From an uncultured virus (IMG/VR IMGVR_UViG_3300017958_000005) (lineage: Duplodnaviria > Heunggongvirae > Uroviricota > Caudoviricetes): DNA of 64,000 nt. Under the pieces are notes generated by a model that saw only the letters and a program-made list of their open reading frames with translations, searched no databases and was not told the DNA's origin. A program made the position numbers and the translations under genes. The DNA is taken from IMG/VR virus record IMGVR_UViG_3300017958_000005, positions 1 through 64,000 of that record; one strand, given 5' to 3'. Shown here piece by piece: positions 27,719 to 61,032 of this stretch; position 1 is the first letter of the stretch; the number at the start of each line of letters is the position of its first letter.

Positions 27719-27719
27719 C

Positions 27720-32583: not shown

Positions 32584-32615
32584 TGTTCCCCTTTAATAAG
32601 TGTGGGTGGTTGTTG

Positions 32616-36256: not shown

Positions 36257-37957
36257 GTGTCGAAGGAGCGAAAAATGCCCACTAACGAACTTACCGATCT
36301 CGAAATCAAAGCAGCGCCAGCCGGCCAGATGACCGTAAATCAGGCAAAAGGCATCGTCGAGGCTTTCGTTGCAGGAATTGGCAACAAAGACTCTGTGGGC
36401 GATATTTGCGCCTCGGGAGCGTTCAACGCGAGCCTTAAGCGCCGCAAGCCACGCGTGGTGTGGGGACACAACTGGAATGACCCAATCGGTAAAGTGCTTG
36501 AAATCTATGAGGTTCCGGCTACCGACCCCCGCCTTCCGGAAAAGATGAAACGTGCCGGAATCGGTGGACTTTACGCAAAAGTTCAGTTCAACCTCAACAG
36601 TGAAAAAGGACGCGAAGCGTTCGCAAATGTCCAATTTTTCGGTTTAGAGCAAGAATGGTCAATCGGATACAAAACGCTCGACGCCATTTTCGATCCCGCC
36701 AAGCAAGCGAATGTTCTCAAAGAAGTCGAACTTTACGAAGTCAGCCCAGTTCTTCATGGCGCAAACCAGTTGACGGGAACAATTTCCGTAAAAGCAGCGA
36801 AGCAGAAACTGCGCGACCCCAAGGGTGGGCTGACCGCCGCTGGGCGACGTCACTTCAACCAGACCGAAGGATCGAACCTCAAGCCGGGCGTTAAAGGTCC
36901 TGCTGATACGCCGCAAAAAATGCGTCGGAAAGGCTCGTTTCTGACTCGCTTCTTCACAAACCCATCCGGGCCAATGAAAAAGCCGGACGGCAAGCCGACT
37001 CGCCTCGCACTTTCAGCGGCTGCATGGGGCGAACCAGTTCCACAAAACCGCAGTGACGCAGCCAAACTCGCCGCAAAAGGACGTCGACTCCTTGAACGCT
37101 ACGAGAATGCGAAGAAAAAAGATGCTGATTGGGACGAGGAGCAAATCGACTATACGGTCTTTGAGAACTTCTTCGCCGAGGATAACCCCGAGTTCAAAAC
37201 GCTCGAAACTGACGAGGGATTCTCTATTAACGATATTGAAATCGACGAGGTCGACGAAAAGGGCCACTACATGATGCGTATGGTTCCACGCAGAGCCCCA
37301 GAAAGCCCCCGCCGTGACATTTTCGCAGAAGGCGAAGCGCAATCCCTCAATGCGGAGAAGCGAAACGCCCTTGAAATGGAAATTGCTTCACGAACCCAGA
37401 TGCCGATCAAACTCATTGAGGCGACGGAAAACTTGGCTGTCTTTGCTAAGAGCAAGCCAGATGGTACTAAGAAGTTTTACCGCCTTCCATACCACTGGGA
37501 CACTGAAACCCAGCAATACATGTTTGGCAAGCCAGAGCGCGTCGAGCCAGCGATGATGTGGCGCCCACGGAAGCCACGCGTCGTCGTCCCATCACAAATG
37601 CCGTCAATGCCGGTTGAAGTAAAGCCTCAAGGTGAAGGGCGAGGCGAGTACAACAACCCTGTAACCGTGAAGTTTGAAGAAGATGAGAAAAGCGCAATCG
37701 ATCAAATGATGGAGTGGCTTGATGAATCTGAAGATGTCGAAATGAAGGAAGATGCTGTTCGCTTCATCATCGAATGCGACATGGAAGATGCCTTCAACGT
37801 GAAATCTGCATTCGACCCAATCTTCGATTACTACAAAGTTGACGTCGAAGTTACTGAAGATGGAATTGAAGTTCTGTCAGAGGCTTCTGACGACTTCTTG
37901 AATGCCATTGCGGTTGCTTCCAAATCGATCTTCGGGGAGACCGAAAAAAAAGTCTGA
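36257..37957 (+). CDS. Prohead maturation protease (HK97/S78-like) with C-terminal extensions (DUF6321-like)
   Basis: GNKDSVGD...GAF...VWGHNWNDPIG...EWSIGY...LYEVSPVLHGAN, followed by KGGLTAAGR...RKGSFLTRF...ALSAAAWG. Confidence 0.92.
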   Translation: MSKERKMPTNELTDLEIKAAPAGQMTVNQAKGIVEAFVAGIGNKDSVGDICASGAFNASLKRRKPRVVWGHNWNDPIGKVLEIYEVPATDPRLPEKMKRAGIGGLYAKVQFNLNSEKGREAFANVQFFGLEQEWSIGYKTLDAIFDPAKQANVLKEVELYEVSPVLHGANQLTGTISVKAAKQKLRDPKGGLTAAGRRHFNQTEGSNLKPGVKGPADTPQKMRRKGSFLTRFFTNPSGPMKKPDGKPTRLALSAAAWGEPVPQNRSDAAKLAAKGRRLLERYENAKKKDADWDEEQIDYTVFENFFAEDNPEFKTLETDEGFSINDIEIDEVDEKGHYMMRMVPRRAPESPRRDIFAEGEAQSLNAEKRNALEMEIASRTQMPIKLIEATENLAVFAKSKPDGTKKFYRLPYHWDTETQQYMFGKPERVEPAMMWRPRKPRVVVPSQMPSMPVEVKPQGEGRGEYNNPVTVKFEEDEKSAIDQMMEWLDESEDVEMKEDAVRFIIECDMEDAFNVKSAFDPIFDYYKVDVEVTEDGIEVLSEASDDFLNAIAVASKSIFGETEKKV

Positions 37958-37983
37958 GGGGTCGCGCTCAAAGTTTCGACCCC
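37944..37983 (+). promoter_or_regulatory. Programmed -1 ribosomal frameshift signal (A8 slippery site plus stem-loop)
   Basis: GAA AAA AAA GTC TGA; 6-nt spacer; GGGGTCG-12 nt-CGACCCC stem; the -1 frame is open into the 38104 ORF. Confidence 0.8.
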
Positions 37984-40827
37984 AACGCTGTAGATGGTGA
38001 CGAGGACGGTCTCGTTCAGGAGGGCACCCCCTTCGAGCGTCCAGCCACACCCAATGTCGCTCGCGCCCTTAGGAGCGCCACAAGTTCCGCCGGATTCGAC
38101 GGGATGAAACGCGACGATATGGCGAAAATGCGTTCAGAAGAATTCAACGAGGCGGTACAGAAACAGTTCGAAAAAGCAAAGGAACTGAGGGCCGAACTGT
38201 ACGAGAAATATCCAAAACTGGATGCGATGCTTGCAGCGCAGCAGATTGCGACCGTCACTTCAGTTCGCACCGGTCAGGACATCCGTGAAGAAGATGTCAT
38301 GGAAGAACTTCAAGATCTGCTGAAGATCGATAGCGACGAAATCGACGACCTAGCAGACATCATCGCCAGTACACGATTCAGCCAAGACCTCCTCGAAGCG
38401 GACGAAGCGCAAATGTCAATTTCTCGCGCTCGAGATTTCGTTGAGGAAACAACTGAGGACATGGGGAACATCTCGCTCGCAATCACCGACATGGAAGAAG
38501 ACGTAGAAACCGCTCTTGACCGAATCAAGAAAGAACTTGACGGCATGGAGATTTCTACAGGGCAATTCAAAGATCTTGCTGAATCCGATGACCGTGCCGA
38601 CGCAACCCGCAGGCTACTCACTGATTTGATTGACGACCGAGAAGAACTTGAGCAACAGATTCCTCAAATGGGCTACCTTCTTGAAGATTACGACGAGGTC
38701 AAGGAGATGCGCGATCAACTCAAAGACCTCGTAGATGAACTCGAAGAACTTTCAAGTGGACCTGTTGAATCTAGGGAGCGGGGACGAGATCTGCTTAAGC
38801 AAGGTTTCCTGAACGCTGACTCACTAAACACGGGGTACGACGAAGACAAGTTTCGTGAGATGCTTGGAAAGTTCCGCAAGACAAAGACTTACGAGCGTGC
38901 CACCGAAGGGATGACAATCGTCCGCAAGCGCAGTATTCCAAAATCTGAACCCGTTGCTGACAGCGACGCCGCAAGGGACATTCATGGACTTGGAAAGCGC
39001 AGCATCATCAACATCCCGGAAACGGGCGTTCAGGTCATGCTCAACGATGATCAACGTGGCGATGCTCGTCGCACCATCGCTGGTCTCAGGTCATCAACAC
39101 AAAATCCTGATGCTTTCGAGAAGATGGACGAGTGGCTTTCCGGTAAATCGCCCAATATTTCGCGAGATCAGCATGAGGAGATTTTCAACGAGTTCGCAGA
39201 TGCCGCCAACCGGGATTTGGATCTTGGAGACCTCCGACACGTCCGTGACGCGATCAACTTGGCGGCAATGTCTGAAGATGGAAAATGGAAAACGCCAAAG
39301 GCTGAGGGTGGATTCGATGGAAGACCAAAACCCGCTGGTCTGACTAAGCGCCAAAGAGCAGATTTGTTGGAGTGGGGGCAAAACGACGCAGATGACATGC
39401 TGCGTAGACGCTTCGTTGGTCTGAAAGAAGATGATGTGTCCCCCAAGGGGTGGATGATGCTCCGCAACGATTTTGGCGGTGGCATGCGTTCAGCAACTGG
39501 CGGTGGAAGCATCAATGAAACGCGTGACACCGGCAAGCGAGCACAGCGAGGTAGGCCGGTTGGCGCTGGTGATGAGAAGAAATTCAAGGGCAAACCGTTC
39601 TCGGAAGTAAAACCTGACAATTGGGATCAGTTGACTGCCGATGAGAGGTTTGACGAACTTCTTACGAATTTGCACCCTTCTAAGACCGGTCTTCGAGAAG
39701 TTGACTTCAACCGTTTGAGAAAAGAACTGGTGCTGGAGTCTCTCCGCTCAGATCAGGAAAGCGAGCGTGCTCGACGTCGGGCTCAGCGTCGGGAAGCGCT
39801 GGCGAACGTCAGGGTAAGCAAACCAACTGAGCGCCCTGCTGCTCGACCTGCTCCAGTTGCTACAACCGCTGAACAAGCCAAGAAGCAGCGTCAGCAGGAA
39901 GTCACGAAAATCGGCAACCGAGTTGCCCGTATTTCGTCAAATATTGACAAGCAGTTCGAGAGAGACGAAGAACGTGGTTTGGACCCCAACGATGAGTCCC
40001 ATAGAGATATTTGGGCGTCACTTACCGACATTTTGGAAGATAGCGATGAGTTAACCCTGTCTCAAGCAGAATCCATCGCTGCAACCCTTGACGACTACCT
40101 AGAAGAAGCATCCGGAGCAGATCTTACTGCAACCGAATCAAACAGTGTCCAAAATGCTCAGGTTCTTCGCGCAGATATGGGCGATCTGATTGACAGATAT
40201 AGGCTTGACCCGAATATCAGCAAGGGTGACAGTTCAGCGGCGGTCCGAATTGGCGGCGAAGGTGAAGAAGATGTCGCCACCACCGGCCGCTCCGCCGCAC
40301 GATTCCTTTCCGAAGGCGGAATGCGATCATTTACCTCATACAAGCCTTCCCCAACCGTCCAAGAATACGCAGAAGCACGCAGAAGCCAAGGGCTACGCAG
40401 TCAACAGGCTGGACGAACCGTAATCAATGAGGAAGCGACATTCTTCAAGGCAATCGAAGATTCTCTGGCAAAAGAAATCAGAGAAGCACGTAACGCCAAC
40501 GATTCACGAACGGTTAAGGGGCTTGAACTACTTCAGCGAATTATGCGTCGTCAAGATTCAGGCAAAGTCTCGGATCGTCGAACCAACGCCGGCGCACTTT
40601 GGGTGACGGCAGACGAAGCCGATGAGATTTTGGACGCGATGATGTTTGCCCTTGACCGACAAATGGAAACAGGCGGATCTAGGGTGGACCTGTATGCACA
40701 ATTTGTCGAAATTATCTCGGCTGCCGCAATGGGGACATTCATCAGCAAGACGACCTCGGAGGTTTCGTCACGAACCCAAGCACGAACGAACAGTCAAGGA
40801 CGACAAGTAAATATCCCGAATCAGTAG
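37951..40827 (+). CDS. Large head-associated protein, probably made as a -1 frameshift fusion to the protease
   Basis: The track ORF 38104..40827 extends upstream in frame to 37951. The extension encodes the shared tag FDPNAVDGDEDGLVQEGTPFERPA. Confidence 0.75.
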   Translation, partial: SLRGRAQSFDPNAVDGDEDGLVQEGTPFERPATPNVARALRSATSSAGFDGMKRDDMAKMRSEEFNEAVQKQFEKAKELRAELYEKYPKLDAMLAAQQIATVTSVRTGQDIREEDVMEELQDLLKIDSDEIDDLADIIASTRFSQDLLEADEAQMSISRARDFVEETTEDMGNISLAITDMEEDVETALDRIKKELDGMEISTGQFKDLAESDDRADATRRLLTDLIDDREELEQQIPQMGYLLEDYDEVKEMRDQLKDLVDELEELSSGPVESRERGRDLLKQGFLNADSLNTGYDEDKFREMLGKFRKTKTYERATEGMTIVRKRSIPKSEPVADSDAARDIHGLGKRSIINIPETGVQVMLNDDQRGDARRTIAGLRSSTQNPDAFEKMDEWLSGKSPNISRDQHEEIFNEFADAANRDLDLGDLRHVRDAINLAAMSEDGKWKTPKAEGGFDGRPKPAGLTKRQRADLLEWGQNDADDMLRRRFVGLKEDDVSPKGWMMLRNDFGGGMRSATGGGSINETRDTGKRAQRGRPVGAGDEKKFKGKPFSEVKPDNWDQLTADERFDELLTNLHPSKTGLREVDFNRLRKELVLESLRSDQESERARRRAQRREALANVRVSKPTERPAARPAPVATTAEQAKKQRQQEVTKIGNRVARISSNIDKQFERDEERGLDPNDESHRDIWASLTDILEDSDELTLSQAESIAATLDDYLEEASGADLTATESNSVQNAQVLRADMGDLIDRYRLDPNISKGDSSAAVRIGGEGEEDVATTGRSAARFLSEGGMRSFTSYKPSPTVQEYAEARRSQGLRSQQAGRTVINEEATFFKAIEDSLAKEIREARNANDSRTVKGLELLQRIMRRQDSGKVSDRRTNAGALWVTADEADEILDAMMFALDRQMETGGSRVDLYAQFVEIISAAAMGTFISKTTSEVSSRTQARTNSQGRQVNIPNQ

Positions 40828-40916
40828 AACGTCAATAAGTACTCCACAGAATAAGCCAATTTTGGGGTACAATTTGACAAACGGTCCTCACGAAAAAACA
40901 GTTTAAATACCTCTGC

Positions 40917-42479
40917 ATGGTCACAGGCAAACAGGCTATGATGCCATGTAGTGGTTGTAGCATCTCTAAGAGATGTTTACTGAATAACATGCAGTACAAG
41001 GAGCCTACCAACATGGAACAAGAAGAGAAAGCAGTCATCAAGATCGATGCCGAGGGCAAGATGATGAACTGCGCCAAAGGCCATGGTGGAGACGACTGCG
41101 GCTACAAAACTGGCGCGAAGATGTGCGGCAAGTGTGGAGCCATGGCAGTTGAAGTAAAAGATGACGATGCCGACTCCGAAGATCTCGAGGCCAAGTCCTA
41201 CGATGAAATCGACGAAGACGACGAAATTATCGAAAAGGCACTCGCCGCCGTTGCTACCGATGAAGACGAGGACGAGGACGAGGAAGAGTCCGACGAGGAA
41301 TCGGATGATGACGCCGAGATGAAGGCTGTTGGCAACGCTCCACAGATGGATGAAGAAGAAGACGAAGAAGACGAAGACGAAGAAGAGGACGACGTTGCCC
41401 CCGCAGAGGCCGCCCCAGCCGAAGAGGCCACTCCTGCCGATGATGAGCCCACCCCTGATTCTGATGCCGAGATGGAAGAAGAAGAAGACGAAGACGAGGA
41501 AGAGGACGACGAAGAGGAAAAAGGCTGGATGGGTGACGCTCGCAAGCGCCGCCTCCAGACCATGGGGCGCAAATCTGCCGACCTTGGTCAGACCGGCTTC
41601 CTCTGCGCCGTCGAGCGCAAGGTGTACCCGGGAAGCGCATCCGTCTGTGACGACTGCCCGGGTGGATGTATCGCCGAAAAAGGCATGCCCGGTCTCATCG
41701 AAATCGAAGGCAAGGCCGAAGCAGAGTTCAACGGTACCGTCATTGATTCCGGATACTCGCAGGACAGCGACATCTACGTCATTGACCTTGAAGTTAAGGA
41801 CGGACACGCCATCGAAGTGTTCATGGAGGGATCCACTGGCGAAACCCTCGGCTTCCATCGTCTCGACGACTCTGTGTTTGAGCAGAAATCGCTGACCGCT
41901 GACACCGAACTAATCGATTTCAACGTCGCTGCCGAAATTGCCGTCAAATCAATCGAAGGGGTTGAAGGCATCGTTACCGCTGTGGAGCCTGACACCTTCG
42001 AAGGCTTTGACGTTTACGCAGTAGAGGTCGACGGTATTGATGGCAAGTCATATGACGTATTCGTCGCTCTAGACGGAGAAGTGCTTGGTTTCGACACTTA
42101 CGAACCGGACGAGGCGGAAGAGATTGAAGCCGAAGCGGCAGAAATCGCCCTCAAGCGTGCGTTTAATGAATCCCAGCGAGAGGAAATGGCCAAAGAAGGT
42201 CTTGCGCTTCCTGATGGTTCTTTCCCAATTTCCAATGTTGACGATCTGCGCAACGCAATCATGGCCCATGGCCGCGCCGTCGACAAGGAGAAAGCCAAGA
42301 AGCACATCATTAAGCGCGCCCGAGAAATGGGTAAGGAAGAGATGATTCCTGCTGCTTGGACATCCGCCAAGAAAGAAGACGCCGAGGTGAACGACATCAA
42401 CGACGCAAGTTTCATGCGTTCGCTGGTCGAGTTTGAAATGCTCATGAACGAGGACGACAGCAACGACGGGAACTCCTGA
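40917..42479 (+). CDS. Acidic scaffold-like head protein with Cys clusters, tandem PepSY-like domains and a DUF6582-like C-terminus
   Basis: D/E-rich tracts; two PepSY-like units; ALPDGSFPI...DLRNAI...GR...HIIKRA; alternative start at 41013 after AAGGAG. Confidence 0.7.
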   Translation: MVTGKQAMMPCSGCSISKRCLLNNMQYKEPTNMEQEEKAVIKIDAEGKMMNCAKGHGGDDCGYKTGAKMCGKCGAMAVEVKDDDADSEDLEAKSYDEIDEDDEIIEKALAAVATDEDEDEDEEESDEESDDDAEMKAVGNAPQMDEEEDEEDEDEEEDDVAPAEAAPAEEATPADDEPTPDSDAEMEEEEDEDEEEDDEEEKGWMGDARKRRLQTMGRKSADLGQTGFLCAVERKVYPGSASVCDDCPGGCIAEKGMPGLIEIEGKAEAEFNGTVIDSGYSQDSDIYVIDLEVKDGHAIEVFMEGSTGETLGFHRLDDSVFEQKSLTADTELIDFNVAAEIAVKSIEGVEGIVTAVEPDTFEGFDVYAVEVDGIDGKSYDVFVALDGEVLGFDTYEPDEAEEIEAEAAEIALKRAFNESQREEMAKEGLALPDGSFPISNVDDLRNAIMAHGRAVDKEKAKKHIIKRAREMGKEEMIPAAWTSAKKEDAEVNDINDASFMRSLVEFEMLMNEDDSNDGNS

Positions 42480-42502
42480 AGGCTGGGAAAGAGTGGCCCA
42501 CT

Positions 42503-45500
42503 ATGGCCAACATCCGGGCCGAACGAGTAATACTTTCTGATCGCGTCAACACCTATCGACGTGATTACGAAACCATTGGTGCTCTCTTTCGGATAAAGAG
42601 TGCGGTACTTGCTTCCCAAGAGAGCCTTGACCCAAACATCTCTGTAAAAGCGTTAAATCAGGATCTTCCCAAAAAAGATAAAAAAGATTCTGAGAAGCGC
42701 ACTTCTGGTACGGGAGTTGAAGAACAACTCCCCGAACTTCGCTATGCGCCTAACGGCAAACGTGGCCGTGGCGACGTACTCAAACTGCATGTAACCCCAC
42801 GCGACCTCACAACTGGCAACGAACCAAACTTTGGTTGGATTCCTGCTCCTGAGAAAAAATCCGAAGAGGAAACACGCAAACAAATGCGTGAACTGTTGGA
42901 TTGGAAGAAGCGCCGACCCAAAGTTCGCGTCAGGAGTTTTCGTGCTGACCCAAGAACAGGTCAACGAGTAGAGGATTCCGGTGTCGATGTCGAAGTAAAA
43001 GGACTCGGCAGAAAACTGAACCAGATTGTTCCCGGAGGGAATTTGTCCTCACGTGCGGCTGGGGCAGTTGGAGTACTAACTGACGCAAACGGGAAATTCC
43101 GATGCCCGCCCGGAACCCCGGCAGCCAACCAGTTCACCGATGAATTTGGTACAAACTGTTTCAAACCAGCACTCTCCTCGCGTCGACTCATTGGAGCGAT
43201 GCGTCGGTGGTTCGACAAATATGTTGAACTCGGAGAACAAATCCAACTGCTTGAAAGCATGGGCATATACGGTGTCGGGCCAGACGACCTAACCCCTCAA
43301 TACAGGCAAAACATCCGAAACATGGTTCGGGCTGCTGGAAGTGTTGCGCCAAAAGAACGCGTCCAAGAAGTTCAATCCCGAATGGACACCGCAATTGATG
43401 CCCTCCAAACACGACTTGGAACGACTCGCGACACCACAGACAATGCCGACATGTGGACCGCGCTGGCAACGCTGGCCGCCGATGAATGGCAAGACCTTGA
43501 CTTCTCAGGGATTTTTTCCGGACCGGAAGGCTGGGGTTCGTGGAACAAAAACATGCTTGCCGACCCAAAGGGTCGCACTCCTCAAGCAGCAGCAGATCAC
43601 ACTGCCGACGTTCGTAGCCAATACATCTCAATGTTTGACAACTGGGTGTCGGACGGCCCAATGCGCCAAAGGTACCGAGATGGAGACCCCGAAGCCAGAG
43701 CCCTCATTGACGAAATGGTTACCCGCCATCTGGCAGCAGAGCGTGGCTTCTTAAAGGCGATTCTTCAGGAGTATCAAGAATCCCCGGAAATCATGCGTCA
43801 AGTAAAGACGCTAGGCCGAACGCAAATCCGTGATGGCGAGGCGTTTGATGACTATTGGCGAGTAGATGGAGAATGCAGCCCGGCAGGTTTCCACCCCAGA
43901 GATGGGTTCGCTCTGAATATTGACTTCAACGCGGCAGCAGTGGCTCTGAAACCAGCAATCCAAAACGGACTAGCAAATTACACTTCTGACGGCCGCATCC
44001 TCTTATTCGATATCGACCCCAACGATGTGTCTCGCTCATTCACTTCGGAAGCCGAACAGTGGGCCGAAATCGGAAACCTGATGCAGAACACCGTCGATCT
44101 TGAACGGTGGCGAAATGTTTACGCTCAAGACCTTTCTACCGCACGCCACGGCTCAATCGAAGCAAAGGGTGTGCATATCGCAAAACATGAACTTGGTCAC
44201 GCCCGCCAGTACCAGTTCATTAAAAATGCCGTCTTGGACACCCACGCCAAAACAGGCTCCACCTACTTAGTCAACTCAACTTCAGGTCAAATTGAACGGC
44301 TCGACGTTTCTCCCGATCAGTGGACTAACCAGCAATGGGTTGATGTGGTGACGAGTCAGGTTCAACGTCTTATCCCAGAAAAGTACCTCGCCGATGGCTT
44401 CCCACCGACGTCGCTTGAGACGTTCGAAGGAACAATGCTTCACATCATGGCGGGAAGGTATTACCAAGACGAAGTTCAAAATTTCTTCAACTTGAATGAT
44501 GATGCCAAACGAGGACAGTCGGCATTGATGATGCTCGAAGGCATGACAGAATTGCGCGCGCTTCGAGATATGGGTGTCCTCATGGATCCAGAACTCGACC
44601 GGCTCGTGTCATGGATGGACGACGTTGACCCCAGAACACCGGAACGCCCTGATCCGCAAGGAGTTATCTGGCCGCCGCCGACAAGTTCAGCAATGCAAGT
44701 GTTCCAGCCGGATCCCAATGGAACGTGGGACACAATTAGCCGCACCCCGATTGAAGATCCAAACCCGTTCATTCCTGACCTTGGCGGAAAACAGGAACAT
44801 ATCGATGCCATCAATTCACGCATCTCAAGTCTCAATCGCAGTCTTCCCGACGCCGAAAGAGACCTTTTTGATCCAAGAAGCGAAGTCGTCGAAATCCAGA
44901 ACGGCAATGACGTTGTCGAACAACTGAGAAGTGGCAAAACCGCTCTCGACATTGAAAACCTGACGGTTAAGAAACAGCAAATCATTGACCGCGAAGTACT
45001 TGCTGAGGACATCGCAGCAACAGGAGAAATCGACGATGTTGGGGATCTCGAGGTCGGCGATGCCATCCGATTCAAAGGATTCAAAACACTTGATCGCCGC
45101 ATGGATGCTGATCAAGAACAAGACCTTTCGGCTGACGAAGGAAAACGGAAAGTCAACTTTGTTCTACCTAAGGGAACAAAAGGCATCGAAAAACAAAACC
45201 CGGCGAACAACGAGCCCGATCAGGTTGAGATTCCCGGCGGAGAATACGAAGTCCGTTCTGTTAACCCAGATGGAACTGTCACGCTAGTTCCCCGCAGCCA
45301 AGATGATGCCGACACCGTTGCTCGTCGCCTCATCGACAGTCTTGATGGAAGTTCCGACATAGACGACGTTCGCGATGCTGTAAGAACAGTTCAGAAACGG
45401 GCGCAGAAGTACGTCCAGAAAAAGGAAAAGATTCGTCGAGCCACGCGATCCAGCGACCCGGCCACCGCACAACGTATGGAGCGGCGCAATGCGGCGATTG

Positions 45501-52234: not shown

Positions 52235-52569
52235 ATCAGAAAGAATGGAACAAAAAACTCGAGAAAACTACCGGTTTTCCAATCAGTGAAATGTTCACTG
52301 CGCTATCCAGTGATCAACTGATTGGGAAGATTCGGGAGGCTGAAGATGGAAAGGATCCATTCGCTGACAAAAGAATGGAAAAATTTGAGCAATTTCTTGA
52401 TGTCCATTCAAATAAGCGCGTAAACCCAAACAATCCTTTTAGGGACGATCGAGATCGTGAAATTTGGTCAACGATCGAGTTCCGGACAGTTCTCTTGCCT
52501 CCAAAAGAACGAAATAAGCGGATTCCAACCTATTTCGGACCGAATCGAGTACAACTAGAAGTTTCCTAG
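52231..52569 (+). CDS. Small protein (112 aa)
   Basis: ATGA overlap with the preceding gene. Confidence 0.7.
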   Translation: MNQKEWNKKLEKTTGFPISEMFTALSSDQLIGKIREAEDGKDPFADKRMEKFEQFLDVHSNKRVNPNNPFRDDRDREIWSTIEFRTVLLPPKERNKRIPTYFGPNRVQLEVS

Positions 52570-52602
52570 CATCATCATTATCTATTCTAAACTGGATACA
52601 CC

Positions 52603-53238: not shown

Positions 53239-55193
53239 TGGCCACTTCATACATTTACGAAAAAGAAGTTGATTGTGAAGCGTGTCCAAGTGTTCGCGTG
53301 AAAAGAACGATCATCGCCAAACTCGAACAGAAAGAAAACGTTCGTTACCTCCGGCAAACTCGCGCAAATCGTGAAGAACTCGTGCAATTTAAAGCACTTT
53401 CTAAACGAAACGGGAATATTCGCCAGTATGACGTCAAACGAGTTGGCGCAATCGGGTCAAGTAGCCGTCTGGGGCAAGCAGCCCAAGCAATCGGAACCAT
53501 TGCCACCCCCGGAAATATTTCCCCTTACCGCAGCCCAATCAGGTCAGGAATTGCTCGTGCCCTGACTCCCGGCAAACCCGGTGGTATGCGTGGTGTACGT
53601 CGCCGGGGACGAACCTCTAGGTGTCCAGAAGGATTCCAGTACGGTGGTCGTTTTACTGACAATGAATTCTCGACATGTGGGCAACAGTTGTTCGATGTTC
53701 CATCTCCCCTTGGCGCAACAATTCGCGCAATTCGTGAGCAGCAAAGAGCCGCCGCTCGAGGACCAGCCCAACCGCGAACTGCCGCTACGCCAATTGCCTC
53801 ACAAGGAACAGTGAATCGTGACCGTGCCGTTCGTGCGGCACAAATTCCGCGCGTGTCAGCCACCACGAAGAAAACCGATCGCGATAAGAGCACCGCTGAA
53901 GTAATCAAAACGATGGGCAAGCCAGACATCAACGCCACTCGCCTCGTCCGACGTGACGGATATGTTCTCGAGCCAGTCGTGACACCCCGAGTTCTTCGAA
54001 CCATCCCAGACAACCGAGACATGGTTGATGCAACATTTATTCTGACTGCCAAGAATCGCGCAGACCTTGGCGACCAAGAACTTGGGCTTCTTTCAAATAC
54101 AGGCGTAACCAACGTCACGTATGTTTTTCAAGACGGATCTTACGTTCAGATTCGAAAAGTTCGTTCATTGACCCGTGGTGAGCGACGCAAGTTGGGTCGC
54201 ACCGTGAACGCGGCGATGAAAGTTGATAACGAAAGTGACCCTCTTGCACGCCTGAAATACGTTTCAGATGAGACCGGTGATGGCATCGATCTCGTTGAGA
54301 GCCTACGAGGCGGTCGCACGATTCAAAAAATCCTTTCCGGGAAAGGCAAAGTTTCGAGATCGAAAGATTCAGAAACTGTCGATCCGCTTGGAGACGCCGC
54401 AAAAACAGTTCGAGACGGAGGAGACATCTCCTCTATCCGCCCAACAATCCTGCAAGAAGCGATTGGTAAAACGAATCTCTTCAAAAAGACAGGTACTGAC
54501 AAGTACAAGGCTGCCGATGGCAGGGTTTACACACTGCGCACTTCGGGCAAGTCAGGCGAACACATTACGCAAGCCATGTCATCCGCAGTCCAAGACCACC
54601 TCGGACTCAACGGTGTTGATATCGCATTTGTCGGTAAGGGATCATCGAAGCGCAAGTACTTGTCCATGACCCCGGAATCCGAGATCGTCGACGGTGCGCT
54701 TTCCAAAGAGAAGTCATTCAATGACCTCGATGTGGACGACGTGGCAAAACTTTTCGTATCTGACATGGTTATGGATATAGAAAGTCGCGCCAGCAACACG
54801 GTTGCGATCTTCGACAAGGGGGATGAGTCGTCGCTCATTGCGACATTTGCCCAAAGTGAACTCGTGGATCTTTCGGATGCCAAAATTCGTGAACGTACCC
54901 AGAAAAAGATTCGCGACATGAAAGCATTGCAACCCGACAGCATTTACAGTAAATACTATAAGAGTTTGAAGGCTGAACAGCGCCGACAAATGCAAGAAGA
55001 GATCGACAAACTCATTGCGAAAGCACGCGAATTTAACTTCACCAAATTCCGCGACAAACTCTACGCAGATGGAGAACTCTCCTCAGCGGAGAAGACACAC
55101 TTGAACATTATTGCTAAAATTATTAAGACACGTATTGATGTACTTACCGACAGTAGGGAAGTTTTGATGCGTGTTCTCGGAGGTCAGAAGTGA
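53238..55193 (+). CDS. Head-region protein with degenerate HipA/PI3K-like kinase C-terminus (651 aa)
   Basis: RCPEGFQYGGRFTD tag; GRVYTLR...AVQDHLGL...LFVSDMVMDIESRASNT. Confidence 0.7.
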   Translation: MATSYIYEKEVDCEACPSVRVKRTIIAKLEQKENVRYLRQTRANREELVQFKALSKRNGNIRQYDVKRVGAIGSSSRLGQAAQAIGTIATPGNISPYRSPIRSGIARALTPGKPGGMRGVRRRGRTSRCPEGFQYGGRFTDNEFSTCGQQLFDVPSPLGATIRAIREQQRAAARGPAQPRTAATPIASQGTVNRDRAVRAAQIPRVSATTKKTDRDKSTAEVIKTMGKPDINATRLVRRDGYVLEPVVTPRVLRTIPDNRDMVDATFILTAKNRADLGDQELGLLSNTGVTNVTYVFQDGSYVQIRKVRSLTRGERRKLGRTVNAAMKVDNESDPLARLKYVSDETGDGIDLVESLRGGRTIQKILSGKGKVSRSKDSETVDPLGDAAKTVRDGGDISSIRPTILQEAIGKTNLFKKTGTDKYKAADGRVYTLRTSGKSGEHITQAMSSAVQDHLGLNGVDIAFVGKGSSKRKYLSMTPESEIVDGALSKEKSFNDLDVDDVAKLFVSDMVMDIESRASNTVAIFDKGDESSLIATFAQSELVDLSDAKIRERTQKKIRDMKALQPDSIYSKYYKSLKAEQRRQMQEEIDKLIAKAREFNFTKFRDKLYADGELSSAEKTHLNIIAKIIKTRIDVLTDSREVLMRVLGGQK

Positions 55194-58100
55194 AACAGTA
55201 CGCTTTAGTAAAGGACATGGTTAACGGCTCGTCTTACTATGGCGTTGTCATCCGTGAAAATGGGCTTACCGAATGCAAAGGTGTTTCAGGTGTAGGCGAA
55301 AAGTGGGCGGAATCTTACAACAACGCCGAAACTAAGTCCCTTGACGATGGTCTTCCCTATGGTGTGAAAATCGGAGAATTCCATGCGTTGACTCAAAGCG
55401 AGGAAATCCTTGTCGAACACATGCTTGACGGCAACACTGTTCGTTTCCCAGACAGAACTCAACTGAAGCAACTGTCTTTCCACAAAACAGACGCTAATTC
55501 AAGCCTTCCTGCCGTTTCAAACACGCCGCTTTCAGCATTTTTGATGGATGACCTGCAAACCGCAGTTGACTACAAGATTCGCGCTTTCCTCTCCGACTCT
55601 GCGAGAGCGTCAGTGATGCTGAAGTCACGTCTTGAAAGATACGGCATCAGCGACACAACTGTCGGCTTCAAGTCTGCAAGCAATAACAGTTTCCTGAATG
55701 AAGACATGTCCAGTGTGGCTCGTGGACATGGCAATCTTCGACGTGCGCTGTTGGATATCAGAGACGCAAAATCAACCTTCCTAGAAAATCATCCGGGATA
55801 TCAGGTTGGAATCGAGGAAAAAGCAATCGGGCGTAGCCTCGGTCGAGGTGCGCGCATTGGCAGACGTGCGGCTCGCGCCTTCAAGCCATACGACCCGAAC
55901 GCAATCGATGGCGACATGGACGGAATTGTTCAAGAAGGAACACCTTGGGAACGTCCAGCAGTCAGAGTTGGTGGACGTGGCGTTCGCTTAACCCCAACGC
56001 AGCAGCGGGCAAGAAGCGAAATTGCTCCAGATGTCGGGATGCGTAGCCGGACGGGTGATGGAGAAAGCATTCAGGACAGGCTTACAGCGGCGCGTAACAG
56101 TCGACAGCAAAAACTTGCCGATCGCATGCGTGAAATGGGTTTCGACGATGACAATCAAAAAGAAATCAATGACTGGCTGAGAACCTTTAACCCGGAAGAT
56201 TTCGAATATACCGACATTGATGATCTCGAGATTGAAGGTCTGACCTCGCGCCGTGGCTCATCCAGCCCTACCGGCAGCATTTTTGGTCAGCGCCGTTACT
56301 CAAGCGAGGATTGGATCGAAGGCCAACTCGATGAGGGGCCGCTTGCTGGTTCTTTCTTTGAACTTCGAACCGCACGCGATTACACCGAAAGCAACTTTAA
56401 TGATCCGGGTGAAACGCTCGGTGGTAATGATGAGTTGACTGTTTACACGCCTGATGGTGTCGTTCTCAGTTTCGAAAACGAAACATGGGAAGACTCTTTG
56501 GACCTTATCAATGTCCGCGCACCGGGCGGTGATGGCCTTCGGTCAAGAAGTCGACGCGGGGATGACGAGGACTACCCTCGTATCGACCCCGATCTCATCA
56601 ACAGGTTGCGAAATGAACGATTTGTTCCCGAGACAAGTCGTTCTGGTCGTGCACGTCAAAACCGCATCATTAACACCCCGAACGCTGATGGTGGTCCACC
56701 ACGTCGTGCAGTCCGGGAGCGCTCTGGCCGAGTTGTCCCAGAACCACCGGCACGTGATCGGAGCGGACTGCGCAGCAGGACCGGTGACACCGCCAACAGA
56801 AATGCCGAATTGACCGGTGTAGGAACAACCGTCCCCAAAGCCATGAAGGCAAACAGGAAGTTCTTCCAAACACTTGCTGCCAACGGATTCGTTTGGGACG
56901 ACAAGCCTGACACCAGTGGCAGAGTTAGGATTTTCCTACCCGACCGCATGTCCGACTGGACACTTGACCAGCCCGACAGCGTCCGTAATCAGTGGGGCAA
57001 ATTCAAACCAGCCCGCGAAAATCAGGCAGCCGGCTTCATTCACGTACACCCCGGCAAGGACACGCCACAACGTCCTGAAAACATGGCGAAACGTTTCCTG
57101 CGCACCATTTTTGGCGACACCGCATGGGACGACATGGAAGCAAACGCCAAGAAACCCGGCGATAAGCGCGGCACTGGTCGAATCGGAGTAATTCCTTCAA
57201 CTAGCACCGGCGCGACTGGATTGCGTTCCGCAACGTCTCGTGCTCGCACTCGTACTGCCTCAACGGAAAGAGTAGCAACGCCCACCACAACCGGACGAAG
57301 CCTCCGCTCGGGCCAACTGCGCAAACTTGGAAAGCCCGGTGTCGCAAGAGGTGAAAGCGACGGAAAAATCTGGGAACAATTGGATGACAACCAACGCGAT
57401 TTGTTCAAGCAATTTGCACAGGCGCGTGAAGTTCAGTTGATGCGGAATCTCACTCAGGATGCGAGAATGCGAAAGTTCCGCAACAAGATGATAGATGATG
57501 GCGATTTCGACGAAATCGACGAGGACGGCAACGTTGTGCGGAATTACAACAAACCGCTTGCTCGAAACATCATCCCATTGGCGCAACGAGAAATTGACGA
57601 TCTGCTTCGCGATGAAAAAATCACGGAGGAAACCCACGTAAAGTGGCAGAAAACTTTGGACGACATCAAGACGTTGCGCAACATGAAGGAAAGCGACAAC
57701 TACGAAGCGCTGGAGCACCTGCATCCGGCAAGTCGTGCCAAGATCATCAAGGACGCTCGGGGTGAAGATTCAAGCATTCCGGGTGTTCGTGCACTGAAGG
57801 CTGATGGTCCGTCAACGTTCTTCGGTGATCAAGCCCGTACAGCCAGTGGTCGTAGCGCCGGTAAGAATCGGAAACCGAAAAGGAAGCGGCCTTTCGCTGA
57901 CCGCATTATCACACCGAATGTTGAACGACTACAGCGTCGGGCGGCTCGTCGTCAACGAGCACAAGCGATTCGTCGGGGAGGCCTTGTTCGCGGTCAAGAG
58001 GCTGACGTTTCTGCAACGCAAAATGCTCGACGCAAACTGGCTCGTCAACTTCGTCGAGCACGACGCAGATTTAAAGGAGAACGCGACGAAAGAGCGATCC

Positions 58101-59035
58101 GTAAAATCTTTGACGAAAAGAAGAAAAATCACCCATTGGCCCGTACAAAAGAAGGCGCTCCAGAAGTCAATGACAAGTACGTTGATTACCTTGCCTTCGT
58201 CGGATCAAATATTGATAAACGTCAAAAAGGTGAACTCTCATCAGACGTTCGCGACAGCGTCCTTCGAGACCTTTGGCAAAACGGAGGATTCAACCAACGC
58301 CCCGAACTCATTTCTGCGGACGAGATGCAGGCCCTCAGCGATGCGGGTTGGCAGGTTCTACACCGAGGAGTTGACAGACTGGGAACTCAAGCACAAGCAA
58401 ACACAGATTCGTACAAGGAAGACTTGGACCGTTTCACGCCCGGCGAAACTAATCTACGAGCACATGGCGTTGGCGAATACTGGGCTGCTCCGGGGAGTGG
58501 GCACTGGGGAGGTTACGGTTCTGGCATGCTTGCCTTCATTGACCCAGAAGGCAAAAGGATCCAGAGGAATAAACTCAAGGGATTATCAGATGAATCTTGG
58601 CCAGCAATGAAGGAAATCCAAGATCTCATCGATGAACTAGGTGATGGAGTTGCACAAGGTGAAGACCCTGCAAACTTCGTTGATCAAGTAATGGAACGAC
58701 TCCGCTCCAATGGTCTCGAAGGTCTCCTCGAAAAAGATAATGAAATCATCCAAGTGGCTCGCCAATTGCTCGACAGGTACAAGGGCATGACCCCGAATGA
58801 CACAAAGCGTGAAAATACGTGGAATGCCATTCAATATATGCTCGGCCAATCGAGGCAGGCGCAATGGTCAGGCGGAGAGGGATATTGGGCTCCAATCCTC
58901 GGCTACGACTACGTCACCTCAAACGAGGGCGTGTTCCTTGTTCACAACCGAGGCAGTGTTGCTGTGCTTGACGTCGCCGAACCGCTCAGCGGCGGAGCAG
59001 CAAAGACAATTGTAGATGGCCTCAATGAAGGGTAA
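55190..59035 (+). CDS. Large multidomain head-region protein with C-terminal ART-like domain (1281 aa)
   Basis: Tag YDPNAIDGDMDGIVQEGT; six G[LM]RS-like linkers; LHRGV...HGVGEYWA...LGYD...VHNRG. Confidence 0.8.
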   Translation: MKQYALVKDMVNGSSYYGVVIRENGLTECKGVSGVGEKWAESYNNAETKSLDDGLPYGVKIGEFHALTQSEEILVEHMLDGNTVRFPDRTQLKQLSFHKTDANSSLPAVSNTPLSAFLMDDLQTAVDYKIRAFLSDSARASVMLKSRLERYGISDTTVGFKSASNNSFLNEDMSSVARGHGNLRRALLDIRDAKSTFLENHPGYQVGIEEKAIGRSLGRGARIGRRAARAFKPYDPNAIDGDMDGIVQEGTPWERPAVRVGGRGVRLTPTQQRARSEIAPDVGMRSRTGDGESIQDRLTAARNSRQQKLADRMREMGFDDDNQKEINDWLRTFNPEDFEYTDIDDLEIEGLTSRRGSSSPTGSIFGQRRYSSEDWIEGQLDEGPLAGSFFELRTARDYTESNFNDPGETLGGNDELTVYTPDGVVLSFENETWEDSLDLINVRAPGGDGLRSRSRRGDDEDYPRIDPDLINRLRNERFVPETSRSGRARQNRIINTPNADGGPPRRAVRERSGRVVPEPPARDRSGLRSRTGDTANRNAELTGVGTTVPKAMKANRKFFQTLAANGFVWDDKPDTSGRVRIFLPDRMSDWTLDQPDSVRNQWGKFKPARENQAAGFIHVHPGKDTPQRPENMAKRFLRTIFGDTAWDDMEANAKKPGDKRGTGRIGVIPSTSTGATGLRSATSRARTRTASTERVATPTTTGRSLRSGQLRKLGKPGVARGESDGKIWEQLDDNQRDLFKQFAQAREVQLMRNLTQDARMRKFRNKMIDDGDFDEIDEDGNVVRNYNKPLARNIIPLAQREIDDLLRDEKITEETHVKWQKTLDDIKTLRNMKESDNYEALEHLHPASRAKIIKDARGEDSSIPGVRALKADGPSTFFGDQARTASGRSAGKNRKPKRKRPFADRIITPNVERLQRRAARRQRAQAIRRGGLVRGQEADVSATQNARRKLARQLRRARRRFKGERDERAIRKIFDEKKKNHPLARTKEGAPEVNDKYVDYLAFVGSNIDKRQKGELSSDVRDSVLRDLWQNGGFNQRPELISADEMQALSDAGWQVLHRGVDRLGTQAQANTDSYKEDLDRFTPGETNLRAHGVGEYWAAPGSGHWGGYGSGMLAFIDPEGKRIQRNKLKGLSDESWPAMKEIQDLIDELGDGVAQGEDPANFVDQVMERLRSNGLEGLLEKDNEIIQVARQLLDRYKGMTPNDTKRENTWNAIQYMLGQSRQAQWSGGEGYWAPILGYDYVTSNEGVFLVHNRGSVAVLDVAEPLSGGAAKTIVDGLNEG

Positions 59036-59044
59036 ACTATTGAC

Positions 59045-59428
59045 ATGAGTGATACAACTAACGAATGGGGCGAAGATCTGCAAGAGGTAGAGCGTCGACA
59101 GCAATTCACCGACCGGTTTAACGAGTTGATGGACTTGACCGACTACCCGCCATTTTCAATCAATCTTGAAAAACACAACGAGTATCGCGAAGAAGTCATG
59201 GCCTACAGCGTGAAAATCTCTGAACAAATTCGTGAAAGCGACGCAATCGAAGATCGACCATTCTCAACACTTATGGCGAAATGGGAAGATGACCTTGACG
59301 AGGCCAAACTCTACAAACAGCGTTATGGTAGGGATTTTGTTGGCGCCCAGAAAGCGGCCGCAAAGAATGACGGCATCTCCATGCGTGACGTAAAGCCCAT
59401 CGGACCACCATCAGCATATAAAGACTGA
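59045..59428 (+). CDS. Small acidic helical protein (127 aa)
   Basis: ATG 6 nt after TAAACT; TGATG overlap with the next gene. Confidence 0.7.
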   Translation: MSDTTNEWGEDLQEVERRQQFTDRFNELMDLTDYPPFSINLEKHNEYREEVMAYSVKISEQIRESDAIEDRPFSTLMAKWEDDLDEAKLYKQRYGRDFVGAQKAAAKNDGISMRDVKPIGPPSAYKD

Positions 59429-61032
59429 TGAATAAAGGGGCCGCCGGGAAAGCGCGAGCACTCCGACGCGCTAAAGAATTGGGATGCACTGGTGCACACA
59501 AACATCCTGACGGCGGCTGGATGGCATGCTCCACCCATGAAGAGTACGAGCGTTTAGAAGCCGAAGAAGAGTCCGAGCAAGAAGAAAAATCCGTTCTTTC
59601 TCGTGTTCGTGAATTCCAAAGTGTTCGCGAACGAAAAGGCAAACGCCGCAAAAAGAAAAATAAAAAGAACTGGGAAAAACTCGGTGAACGTGGCGTTGTT
59701 TCAATCGACACAATCACTGGCGGCGGGCTCGTTTCGGGCGCTGTCGCTGGAAAAGTTGCATCAGCAATCCCCCGTGACGGAGAAGAAGATGTTTTTACCG
59801 ACATCAACTCAGCACGTCGAAGGGCGCGACAACTGGGATGTATCGGAGTTGCACGACGTCGTTCCACTGGCGGTCAAGTCGTATGGACTCCGTGTTCAAA
59901 CATCACCGACTATGCGCGACGCACAGGAAGCACCGCCCTTGGCCGTCGATACATAGAACGAATGCGACGGCAAGAAGCGCGTCGAATCGTTGAAGAAGAA
60001 CGCAAGCGCGGTCGCTACAAGCGTAAAATTTCCCTATTTGAAGAACTTCACGGGAAAGCGCTCGGCAGGAAAATCCGTCAGGCTGCTGCTGTTTTCGATG
60101 CCAATGCCACGGATGGTGACAACGACGGGATGGTGCAAGATGGCACCGCTTTTGCTAGACCAGCAATCCCCAAGGGTGTCGGTAAGTCGAAAACATGGAA
60201 AGACCTCATTGAGATGGAGCCCGGTTGGATGTCCGAGGCACCAAAAAACATTCAAAGAGCAGCGTCGCAGGAAGCGAGAGAAAAACACCGGAAATTACGT
60301 GTTTCTGGGCTTCGTTCGCAGCAAACCGGGTCCGGTGGTCGTGCTCAAGTGAGTCGAATCATGCAACAAGTCATGCCAGAGCATCGTGGAAAAGAGGATA
60401 GAACCCTCTATTTCATTGGCGGAACAACTGGTGCGGGGAAGTCAACTCTCACCCGAAATGACAGATTTGGGATACCGGGGCCTGATGCTGCTGCACATAT
60501 TGACCCTGATGAGATTAAGGCCGGTTTGGTTGGCTGGGATAATGGCCGTGGTGCTGGTGCCGTTCACGATTCTTCACGACGAGTTACCGATCACGCCATG
60601 AAAGCAGCGGCTGAGGAAAAAACCGATATGGTCGTTCAGGGTACTGGCAAGAGGACTGAGCACCTTCAAATGGCTCGTCAAAATGGATATGCAACTGTTG
60701 GGCACTTTGTTCATATTCCCGGTGACGAAGCAGATCGCCGGATTGTTCAGCGAAATGCTGACAATAGGCAGAATGGTGGAGCGATAATCCCGGAATGGTT
60801 TGGGAGCCAGATTGGTCGTGAACTACAGCCGATTGTTCCTCGTCAAATTACATCCGGATTATTTGATGAATTCTTCTTGTGGGATAACAGCGGAGACACA
60901 CCCGTTCTGATTGCTAAGCGCACCAAAGACGGAAATTACAACATCAATGATATTGATGCTTTCAATGATTTCTTTAGTCCGACCGGAGCCGAGTACGTCA
61001 AGAACTACTGGGATAGTAAGTCAAGTAGTTAA
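59428..61032 (+). CDS. Head-region protein: two DUF3721-like Cys/His repeats, shared tag and zeta-toxin-like P-loop kinase (534 aa)
   Basis: AKELGCTGAHKH...WMACSTH and ARQLGCIG...WTPCSN; GGTTGAGKST, HIDPDEIK, RIVQR, LWDNS. Confidence 0.85.
   Translation: MNKGAAGKARALRRAKELGCTGAHKHPDGGWMACSTHEEYERLEAEEESEQEEKSVLSRVREFQSVRERKGKRRKKKNKKNWEKLGERGVVSIDTITGGGLVSGAVAGKVASAIPRDGEEDVFTDINSARRRARQLGCIGVARRRSTGGQVVWTPCSNITDYARRTGSTALGRRYIERMRRQEARRIVEEERKRGRYKRKISLFEELHGKALGRKIRQAAAVFDANATDGDNDGMVQDGTAFARPAIPKGVGKSKTWKDLIEMEPGWMSEAPKNIQRAASQEAREKHRKLRVSGLRSQQTGSGGRAQVSRIMQQVMPEHRGKEDRTLYFIGGTTGAGKSTLTRNDRFGIPGPDAAAHIDPDEIKAGLVGWDNGRGAGAVHDSSRRVTDHAMKAAAEEKTDMVVQGTGKRTEHLQMARQNGYATVGHFVHIPGDEADRRIVQRNADNRQNGGAIIPEWFGSQIGRELQPIVPRQITSGLFDEFFLWDNSGDTPVLIAKRTKDGNYNINDIDAFNDFFSPTGAEYVKNYWDSKSSS

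Follow-up and report, generated by a model that had tools for sequence, protein, structure and literature searches.

The DNA analysed here, hereafter the window, corresponds to positions 1 to 64,000 of a virus record (single contig, 78.8 kb) from an uncultured salt-marsh phage (IMG/VR IMGVR_UViG_3300017958_000005), and it raises the question of why a block of ca. 23 kb, on the + strand, lies between the gene for the prohead protease and that for the major capsid protein. The head module is of the HK97 type, with Phage_portal, Peptidase_S78 and Phage_capsid (HK97 fold family) all recognised by Pfam within one module. It contains a portal protein of 661 residues (34179..36164, +; Phage_portal, E 3e-48; phrog_2662), a prohead protease of 566 residues (36257..37957, +; Peptidase_S78, E 4e-12, and DUF6321, E 2e-28; phrog_80) and a major capsid protein with an N-terminal delta-like region (61184..62500, +; Phage_capsid, E 1e-46). 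In the protease, the S78 domain occupies residues 29-176 and DUF6321 residues 186-257, and a long C-terminal region follows. The original prediction for this locus had counted about 11 open reading frames (ORFs) between protease and capsid genes, and this is what is found: ten ORFs of at least 100 residues (907, 520, 2342, 829, 112, 211, 651, 1281, 127 and 534 residues, designated below as p907, p520 and so on) and an eleventh of 50 residues, located in the sole larger gap (49531-49745). The answer that we favour, with moderate confidence when it is taken as a whole explanation, is that the block probably encodes cargo polyproteins of the phage head, which would be loaded, cut and delivered with the DNA.

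Comparison with related loci indicates that the block is a trait of a phage family. Relatives of the protease in IMG/VR number 342, of which 80 loci were kept, and five large relatives (G001-G005; 106-174 kb, four of them at least 90% complete) served for comparison of gene order. The block is syntenic in all five, with 24-45 kb from protease start to capsid start and a common order of protease (with p907-like cargo), p520, a p2342-like protein, sometimes p829, small proteins, p211, p651, a p1281-like and a p534-like protein. Homologues of p907 are fused to the protease in relatives, and such protease-cargo fusions are common among the 80 kept loci, where these ORFs reach at least 3809 residues; the largest ORF further downstream in the block of relatives has 5345 residues. 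The fusions carry UvrD, ArdcN with MPTase-PolyVal, Sigma70_r4 and RNase_T domains. Overall, the modules recognised in relatives comprise Sigma70 region 4, Mor/HTH, Clp_N, NUDIX, Zeta toxin, DnaJ, GNAT, RNase T, DUF3626, KTSC, UvrD helicase and ArdC-N with MPTase-PolyVal (this last pair in relative L064), with up to five Pfam families in one ORF. Through ArdC-N and MPTase-PolyVal, the family is linked to polyvalent proteins (Iyer et al. 2017). The nearest capsid proteins come from Actinobacteria phages, the nearest cultured phages by this protein being Brevibacterium phage Cantare and Gordonia phages (ca. 50% identity), in which protease and capsid genes are adjacent and an extra gene block sits between portal and protease. 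The 78.8-kb record is itself probably incomplete, because a 99.8-kb IMG/VR contig (L005/L084) carries protease and p534 genes identical to those of the window.

Six large block proteins had been predicted to share one architecture, in which a start site of the K-[ASG]-[LI]-G-R kind precedes a conserved tag peptide. The start sites and the tags were recovered, whereas the single conserved tag turned out to be two different ones. K[ASG][LI]GR occurs in four block proteins (p2342 at K166, p829 at K129, p1281 at K211 and p534 at K210) when only 0.08 are expected per shuffled block, and p651 has DVKRVG at residue 65 (53430-53447), all of these sites being placed at residues 65-211 and not at the extreme N-terminus. 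The first tag, D-x-D-x-D-G-x-[VI]-Q-[ED]-G-T-x-[FW]-x-R, is common to p829, p1281 and p534 (start site plus tag at 50129-50299, 55820-55975 and 60055-60192, respectively) and closes a shared peptide of ca. 45 residues behind the K site (pairwise BLASTP E 2e-7 to 8e-6). The second is a Cys tag, CPxG...FTDxxxxxC, found in p2342 (43103-43159, with the KGLGR start site at 42998-43012) and in p651 (53622-53678), and five of five relatives keep the Cys motif in both protein families. A Pfam search of the five tag segments at E<=10 returned nothing.

Outside the family, the tag is found in a broad set of large proteins. A profile built from 11 tags matched 935 representative proteins (protein clusters) at E<=1e-3 and 134 at E<=1e-10; these are mostly 500-3000 residues long and often have 2-8 matched stretches. 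The best 40 matches include three portal fusions, one S78 fusion, three proteins with Zeta plus ADP-ribosyltransferase (ART), three with ART-PolyVal and others with NUDIX, RNase T, DUF3626 or HipA with PI3-PI4 kinase, while 20 of these 40 have no Pfam family. In multi-copy tag proteins, many copies are preceded, 5-40 residues upstream, by a K-A or K-S pair. Judged from such contexts, the tag module behaves as a junction element of head-associated polyproteins and might serve for docking, as a protease exosite or in both roles; a complex prediction for the capsid protein, protease residues 1-190 and the tag scored 0.00, which speaks neither for nor against binding. In one tag-bearing protein (P0028, 1720 residues, NUDIX), additional Hint and homing-endonuclease domains form an intein within the putative cargo.

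Behind the tags, a short linker recurs along the polypeptides. In the window it reads G[LM]RS and is found 11 times in four block proteins, namely four times in p907 (residues 327, 460, 739 and 763; nt 39082, 39481, 40318 and 40390), twice in p2342 (46877 and 47618), four times in p1281 (56036, 56534, 56765 and 57218, with an SLRS at 57299) and once in p534 (60307-60318). This compares with a single occurrence in the remaining 18,216 residues of the crude proteome, and shuffled block proteins averaged 0.31, with 3 as the highest count among 2000 trials, so that the enrichment over the rest of the proteome, a check that had been set beforehand, is clear. Linkers had been announced in five proteins; the fifth is reached only if the ALRS of p829 (50345-50356) is counted. 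The lone outside match (PANGMRSQTSGG) is located at residue 574 of a 1382-residue protein of the tail region, possibly the tape measure (15094-19242, -), and since ca. 0.75 chance matches are expected it is perhaps meaningless.

The linker differs from one lineage to the other. G[LMF]RS occurs 11, 12 and 12 times in the window, G001 and G002, respectively (0.31-0.66 expected), GLAS 11 times in G005 (0.41 expected), (I)SGRM 14 times in G004 (0.15 expected) and [GS]P[VI]G 23 times in G003 (0.79 expected). These classes are near-exclusive, with off-class counts of 0 to 3, and GLSSG, R[FL]SSG, LRSSG and PVRPP represent further classes in other loci. The possibility that the linkers are repeats at the DNA level was rejected since their codons vary from site to site, which indicates that the peptide, not the DNA, is under selection. 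Replacement of the motif genome-wide between lineages implies a trans-acting reader, for which a protease would be the most economical candidate. Tag-start sites seem to embed the lineage linker in two relatives (KAIGMPIGS in G003 and KALGGRIGR in G004), a pattern that is too fuzzy to count.

Linkers are also found at the borders of modules. When p907 is aligned with four relatives, the linker positions are conserved and the flanks variable, and one relative has an insertion of ca. 130 residues that is bounded by two linkers. Between the window and G001 or G002, 22 of the 47 internal homology breakpoints are located at most 30 residues from a linker or start site, versus 8.75 by chance and with none of 2000 trials reaching 22. 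In p2342, homology with relatives stops at the GLRS of residue 1459, and ca. 880 residues that are extra in the window are joined exactly there. In four relatives, no linker cuts any of the Pfam domains found, and several domains abut one, as illustrated by a DnaJ domain that begins 14 residues past ISGRM.

If these proteins are cut in the head, the next issue is which enzyme would do so. In the capsid protein, a candidate maturation site (K97|S98-I-G) is located at 61472-61483, and shorter capsid proteins align from residue 97-98 onward. The border reads [KR]-S-[IV]-G in four of four N-termini, S98 and G100 are invariant in six of six sequences, and the Cantare capsid protein has EAK-SLGEAF at the same place. 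At the sequence level this border resembles the K-[ASG]-[LI]-G tag-start sites, and it also resembles the Lys|Ser maturation site of HK97. Both the tag-start and the capsid-border sites are constant across lineages, as is the S78 domain, which is nearly invariant, catalytic motifs included, across seven linker classes. No convincing column was found in which S78 residues track the linker across these classes, and a lineage's linker is absent from its capsid delta border. Because of its near-invariance, S78 hardly explains the lineage-specific linkers, and the assumption that a single protease serves both types of site has become doubtful, given that the linkers differ completely between lineages.

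Two proteases might thus share the work, S78 cutting only the constant K|[SAG][LI]G sites and a zincin-like domain of p2342 (residues 240-760; 43220-44782, +, with HELGH at 44186-44200) the co-evolving lineage linkers; we hold this scheme to be tentative and somewhat unlikely. Besides the near-identity of S78 domains just described, it draws on an AlphaFold 2 (AF2) model of the domain (predicted local distance difference test, pLDDT, 70; predicted TM score, pTM, 0.77), which in fold comes closest to a family of sequence-specific endopeptidases, with the anthrax lethal factor catalytic domain first (1yqy_A, Z 8.4, root-mean-square deviation 4.6, 194 aligned residues), followed by the Pro-Pro endopeptidases PPEP-3 (Z 5.4) and PPEP-2 (Z 5.0) and by other zincins. 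The alignment shows no variation at H323, E324, H327, E440 and E444 (HELGH plus downstream Glu residues), the p2342-like proteins of six of six lineages have an HExxH and, between linker classes, BLAST detects only the tag region of this protein. Zincin autoprocessing of polyvalent proteins was predicted in the part of Iyer et al. 2017 (PMC5512222) considered here. The scheme is weakened by a Z of 8.4 that lies in the range the search tool calls common, by the lack of a match to any Pfam peptidase family for p2342, either as a whole protein or in segments at E<=5, and by the portals, which also fall to 54-56% identity, so that the fast divergence of the zincin may be mere overall distance; the domain is equally possible as an effector directed against host proteins. 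A Foldseek search against the Protein Data Bank (PDB) with this model and with that of the p1281 C-terminus gave no row at E<=0.001. From sequence and model, a block-encoded lethal-factor-like zincin rivals S78 as the linker protease, and the choice between the two may fall either way.

The junction between protease and p907 is the second point at which alternatives have to be weighed. In the window, p907 is annotated as a separate ORF (38104..40827, +), and the protease gene ends in GAA AAA AAA GTC TGA, that is, in an A8 run (37944..37951, +) with the slippery sequence A_AAA_AAA (37945-37951) one codon before the stop (37955-37957). An X_XXY_YYZ heptamer with a zero-frame stop nearby is therefore present. 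The -1 frame is open from 37891 and continuous into the 907-residue ORF, no ATG, GTG or TTG start codon occurs in it between 37891 and 38103, and the stretch 37945..38103 (+) contains the codons for KKSLRGR, for a complete DxDxDG tag (FDPNAVDGDEDGLVQEGTPFERP) and for an ALRS linker (38065-38076), all located before the annotated ATG of p907 at 38104. The EKKSLRGR motif that had been listed among the start sites of the block belongs to none of the called ORFs and exists only in this frame; position 37951, from which the block had been counted, is the first -1-frame codon after the A8 run. Over 46 residues (E 2e-19), the -1 stretch shares 70% identity with the G001 junction at which protease and cargo are joined in frame. 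In a codon-position comparison with G001 only, nucleotide differences amount to 14, 11 and 32 at codon positions 1, 2 and 3, with 20 synonymous and 14 non-synonymous codon changes. This third-position bias indicates that the stretch evolves as coding sequence, and shows purifying selection on the -1-frame tag.

Other features concern the site itself. The A8 run is the sole one of the window, in which runs of A7 or longer are depleted (7 matches versus 23.3 expected from shuffles). It is followed after 6 nt by a predicted hairpin with a 7-bp stem (GGGGTCG/CGACCCC; 37958..37983, +; RNA fold of -14.1 kcal/mol), whose support is modest (z -1.78, 13 of 200 shuffles folding as well). The arrangement is identical in four IMG/VR contigs, and independently assembled Logan contigs of one DNA run and three RNA-library runs span the A8 run gap-free. 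These read data consist of contigs only, which are blind to minor A9 RNA variants and to expression levels, and the contigs of the RNA libraries could derive from DNA that was carried over. A second, divergent lineage (L059/L062) displays an A7 run, a 6-nt spacer, a GC hairpin and a tag in the -1 frame at the same junction. In total, an A run with a -1-frame tag occurs in two of 26 distinct protease-end contexts, many of the others being in-frame protease-cargo fusions. Taken together, the sequences make a -1 recoding at the protease end probable, either ribosomal or by transcriptional slippage, and its probable outcome would be free protease plus a minority of protease-tag-p907 fusion. The frame change could instead be a recent mutation or a homopolymer error devoid of recoding function, p907 being made from its own ATG. 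Its rarity among junction contexts, the z-score of the hairpin and contigs that are compatible with a mixed population all fit such an origin, which we nevertheless find rather improbable, since the run is identical in the IMG/VR contigs and in the Logan contigs of four runs, substitutions in the -1 stretch follow a coding pattern, A runs are otherwise avoided in the window, and the combination of A run, 6-nt spacer and GC hairpin recurs at this junction in an independent lineage. In another relative (L066:3318-4632), the protease is split into frames of 206 and 241 residues with a 26-nt overlap in a +1 relation and no homopolymer, which represents either another recoding site or an assembly error.

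As for the content of the block, the best characterised product is p534 (59428..61032, +), with DUF3721 at residues 8-37 (E 7e-10) and a Zeta_toxin match at residues 323-449 (60394-60774; E 7e-9, 35.8 bits versus a cut-off of 22.3) that carries a visible GAGKS P-loop, which bears out the zeta-like kinase of the original prediction. The GCxGxH...W.PC motif of DUF3721 apparently occurs twice in its N-terminus (59449-59538 and ca. 59810-59900, the second copy being recognised by eye), and is also present at the head of the p534-like proteins of G003 and G005. The HExxH peptidase, HipA-like and ART-like domains that had been proposed stand as structural leads of differing strength. The zincin-like domain described above belongs to p2342 (42503..49531, +), which like p534 combines several unrelated segments in one polypeptide and ends with a C-terminal domain (48470-49528) whose likeness to the C-terminus of p1281 was judged by eye alone. 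A second HExxH protein, p829 (49745..52234, +), has HEMTH at 50984-50998, and the motif is kept in its G001 and G002 homologues; a structure search in the Atlas gave best scores of at most 0.79 and no model, hence no fold evidence. For p651 (53238..55193, +), the Atlas model of residues 396-650 is close to HipA_2/HipA_C clusters (TM by row 0.60-0.66, below the bar at which the tool names a family) and no Pfam match to HipA or PI3-PI4 kinases was obtained, so that a HipA/PI3-PI4-kinase-like C-terminal domain (54423-55187) is a lead only. The C-terminal domain of p1281 (55190..59035, +; domain at 58067-59032, residues 960-1281) was modelled by AF2 with a pLDDT of 85 and a pTM of 0.83. Rows for PARP, cholix and exotoxin A span the whole model at Z 3.7-4.3, helical rows score higher and segments matched no Pfam ART family at E<=5; the ART likeness of the domain (Z ca. 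4) is a weak one.

The other products are smaller or contain fewer recognisable features. The genes for p112 and p211 (52231..53238, +) are conserved in relatives, p211 being 53-67% identical in five of five and p112 matched in two of five, and p127 (59045..59428, +) has a homologue in G002 (34% identity). p520 (40917..42479, +), which has an N-terminus rich in Cys, an acidic stretch that varies in length and a C-terminal half that is conserved, was found in all relatives (51-78% identity), and its residues 413-491 match the C-terminal part of "capsid maturation protease" genes of Gordonia phages (tblastn E 1e-15); it may be a scaffold-like or targeting protein. In the acidic part of p520 (41258-41518), metagenome contigs have a 15-nt insertion behind 41276 and joints that skip 187-214 nt, and these length variants indicate that the stretch is polymorphic in the population. 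Like p520, p907 is acidic and largely devoid of recognisable domains. For 17 segments between linkers, Pfam at E<=5 yielded no more than noise-level rows, tblastn searches of GenBank phages with p2342, p1281 and a 62-residue tag gave no match, and phmmer against PDB sequences gave nothing for p2342 and only rows at E>=0.06 for p1281 and p651. No PolyVal Pfam domain (ArdcN, MPTase-PolyVal, ART-PolyVal) was detected in the window proteins at E<=0.01, nor in their segments at E<=5.

From these elements the following mechanism can be proposed. The block would be the cargo part of the head-assembly module in a family of uncultured phages, encoding giant multi-module proteins, whose recognisable modules would be a zincin resembling lethal factor, another protein with HExxH, two kinases (HipA-like and Zeta-like) and a pair of domains that are possibly ART-like. 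Its products would be taken into the procapsid, the first one riding on the prohead protease itself, which in the window phage would require a -1 frame change at the A8 run, giving much free protease and little protease-tag-cargo fusion. The other products would enter by means of the junction module, made of a K-[ASG]-[LI]-G start site, a basic spacer and a DxDxDG loop or Cys motif. Inside the head, cuts at the start sites and at the lineage-specific linkers (G-[LM]-R-S in the window) would release single modules, which would leave the head with the DNA. That the block encodes modular cargo polyproteins had been proposed from the window alone, and the proposal gains from the synteny in five of five relatives, the protease fusions, the tag in portal and protease fusions, the likeness of start sites to the capsid border and the linkers at homology breakpoints; it is its single-protease part that has suffered.

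Several observations weigh against this mechanism. To the near-invariant S78 domain, the capsid border devoid of lineage linkers, the modest hairpin and the limits of the contig data, one must add that Pfam recognises no family in most segments of the window, so that the term effector is assumed for them. One copy of each block protein represents ca. 0.83 MDa (7,514 residues), which would restrict these proteins to low copy numbers. The family includes none of the isolate phages that were matched when GenBank phages were searched, and no tag was found in Gordonia phage Gray or in the head genes of Cantare, the nearest cultured phages.

The block proteins could also be packaged as structural components, such as an internal scaffold, an inner body or a DNA-organising core like that of phiKZ, and not be injected as effectors. 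The location of the block in the head module, the conserved order of its core members, the acidic and largely featureless p907 and p520, and the C-terminal domain that p520 has in common with protease genes of cultured relatives can all be accommodated in this way. A Zeta kinase, NUDIX, RNase T, DnaJ, sigma region 4, UvrD and ArdC are hard to explain as structure, and modules are freely swapped between relatives, which makes a purely structural role distinctly improbable. Very improbable, finally, is that these are ordinary late or early cytoplasmic proteins, never packaged and only incidentally encoded in the head module, with linkers acting as flexible spacers or as sites for other partners such as kinases: the Pfam search found neither a Phage_Mu_F domain in any of 15 window proteins nor a known capsid-targeting sequence, most linker variants contain Ser and the block encodes kinases, but fusions to the prohead protease and, elsewhere, to portals, a tag-start site like the capsid border and a lineage-wide linker replacement that needs a trans-acting reader all argue otherwise.

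Returning to cargo that would be loaded, cut and delivered, its rules might form a "cargo code" of three layers, a proposal that is speculative and rather doubtful as it stands. The first layer would be the widespread junction module, with K|A-L-G and a calcium-loop-like DxDxDG, which is present in at least 935 protein clusters and would destine proteins to the head interior. A fast-evolving linker alphabet (GLRS, GLAS, ISGRM, GPVG and others), read by a co-evolving zincin that is itself part of the cargo, would be the second, each lineage cutting only its own polyproteins. The third would be a -1 frameshift on the protease gene that, like that of Gag/Gag-Pol, would set the amount of cargo per head.

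Around the block, the genes at 25300-33920 (-) include terminase, located on the opposite strand, and Rad52-like, Cas4/PD-(D/E)XK, RuvC, ParB_N, ThyX and PAPS-reductase-like genes, and a staphylococcal-nuclease-like endonuclease is encoded directly after the capsid gene (62750-63115, +). An ORF that is open at the window start (1-2874, -) has an Mtd_N domain (major tropism determinant N-terminus, E 4.5e-14), which hints at a target of a diversity-generating retroelement.

That phage proteins are packaged, processed and injected is already known as an idea, the parts of the literature considered here providing examples in T4, phiKZ, SPN3US, P1 Dar and polyvalent proteins. In T4, a short peptide directs cargo, among it an ADP-ribosyltransferase, to the prohead; the head protease trims this cargo, which is injected. 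In the portion of a published account considered here, IPI-III and Alt are described as having a capsid-targeting sequence and as being cut by the prohead protease gp21 (PMC9024508). The cargo proposed here would likewise be targeted by a peptide, processed in the head and injected. It differs in that the protease is of the S78 type, the tag lies 65-210 residues inside the protein, the polyproteins have many internal linkers and the cleavage motifs are others; the T4 combination of an extreme N-terminal targeting peptide with a gp21-type protease was not found in the block. Short peptides also dock cargo inside HK97-fold shells in the case of encapsulin cargo-loading peptides and of the C-terminal targeting tail of the HK97 protease. 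These peptides are terminal and much shorter, unlike the block tag, for which docking is only putative. As to the frame change, programmed -1 frameshifting sets product ratios in dnaX (A_AAA_AAG), lambda G/GT and retroviral Gag-Pol. Like such sites, the protease junction combines a slippery A run with a zero-frame stop close to it, a predicted hairpin at a distance of 6 nt and a long startless -1 ORF; it differs from known cases by joining a head protease to cargo, most relatives being simply fused in frame. No paper on a -1 frameshift that joins a head protease to cargo was found in the open-access literature, to which our searches were confined (subscription journals lay outside their scope).

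Among systems with large cargo, P1 Dar is comparable in gene position in the sense that darB, whose 250-kDa product carries at its N-terminus a signal of 30 residues for capsid targeting, is located next to portal and protease genes (PMC9024508). According to the same partial source, the very large Dar anti-restriction proteins are packaged in ca. 40 copies, have no consensus signal in common, and occur with a capsid protein that has its own N-terminal scaffold domain (PMC9024508). Unlike in the block, neither polyprotein linkers nor protease fusion are described in that portion (PMC9024508); the comparison is one of descriptions. In phiKZ and SPN3US, ejection and inner-body proteins mature by proteolysis, the prohead protease cutting many proteins of the head interior at a short motif, and the host receives a large mass of protein, according to the sections considered (PMC7411985, PMC10052503, PMC5694885). 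As depicted there, these are phages of 240-280 kb with a T4-like protease and scattered genes, in contrast to the HK97/S78 module, contiguous block, protease fusion and lineage linkers described here. The polyvalent proteins (Iyer, Burroughs, Anand, de Souza and Aravind 2017; PMC5512222), predicted in the considered part of that paper to be packaged and possibly autoprocessed by a zincin, are similar in content, being giant multi-domain anti-defence or host-modifying enzymes encoded beside head genes (portal and terminase in their case). Relatives of the block carry ArdcN with MPTase-PolyVal and tag-bearing proteins carry ART-PolyVal, while the window's own proteins match no PolyVal family. 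Not mentioned in the same part of that paper are a syntenic 24-45 kb block between S78 protease and capsid, fusion to the protease, a junction tag held in common, tetrapeptide linkers that differ by lineage, and a frame change (PMC5512222). The open-access literature likewise yielded no paper on this phage family, the tag or DUF6321, nor on an S78/HK97 module opened by a 24-45 kb cargo block, protease-riding cargo, a shared junction tag, lineage-specific linker alphabets or a frame change on the protease gene.

If the proposed reading is true, an abundant group of environmental phages would spend as much as one quarter of the genome, as in a relative with 44.8 of 174 kb, on proteins that are co-delivered with the DNA, and the rules of their loading and cutting would be readable from sequence. 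This would provide a handle to predict injected anti-defence and host-takeover proteins in metagenomes, and a portable tag for loading foreign proteins into HK97-type capsids. The linkers would then represent a natural case of protease/cleavage-site co-evolution in DNA phages, and through the frame change at the end of the protease gene recoding would find a new use, in head assembly.

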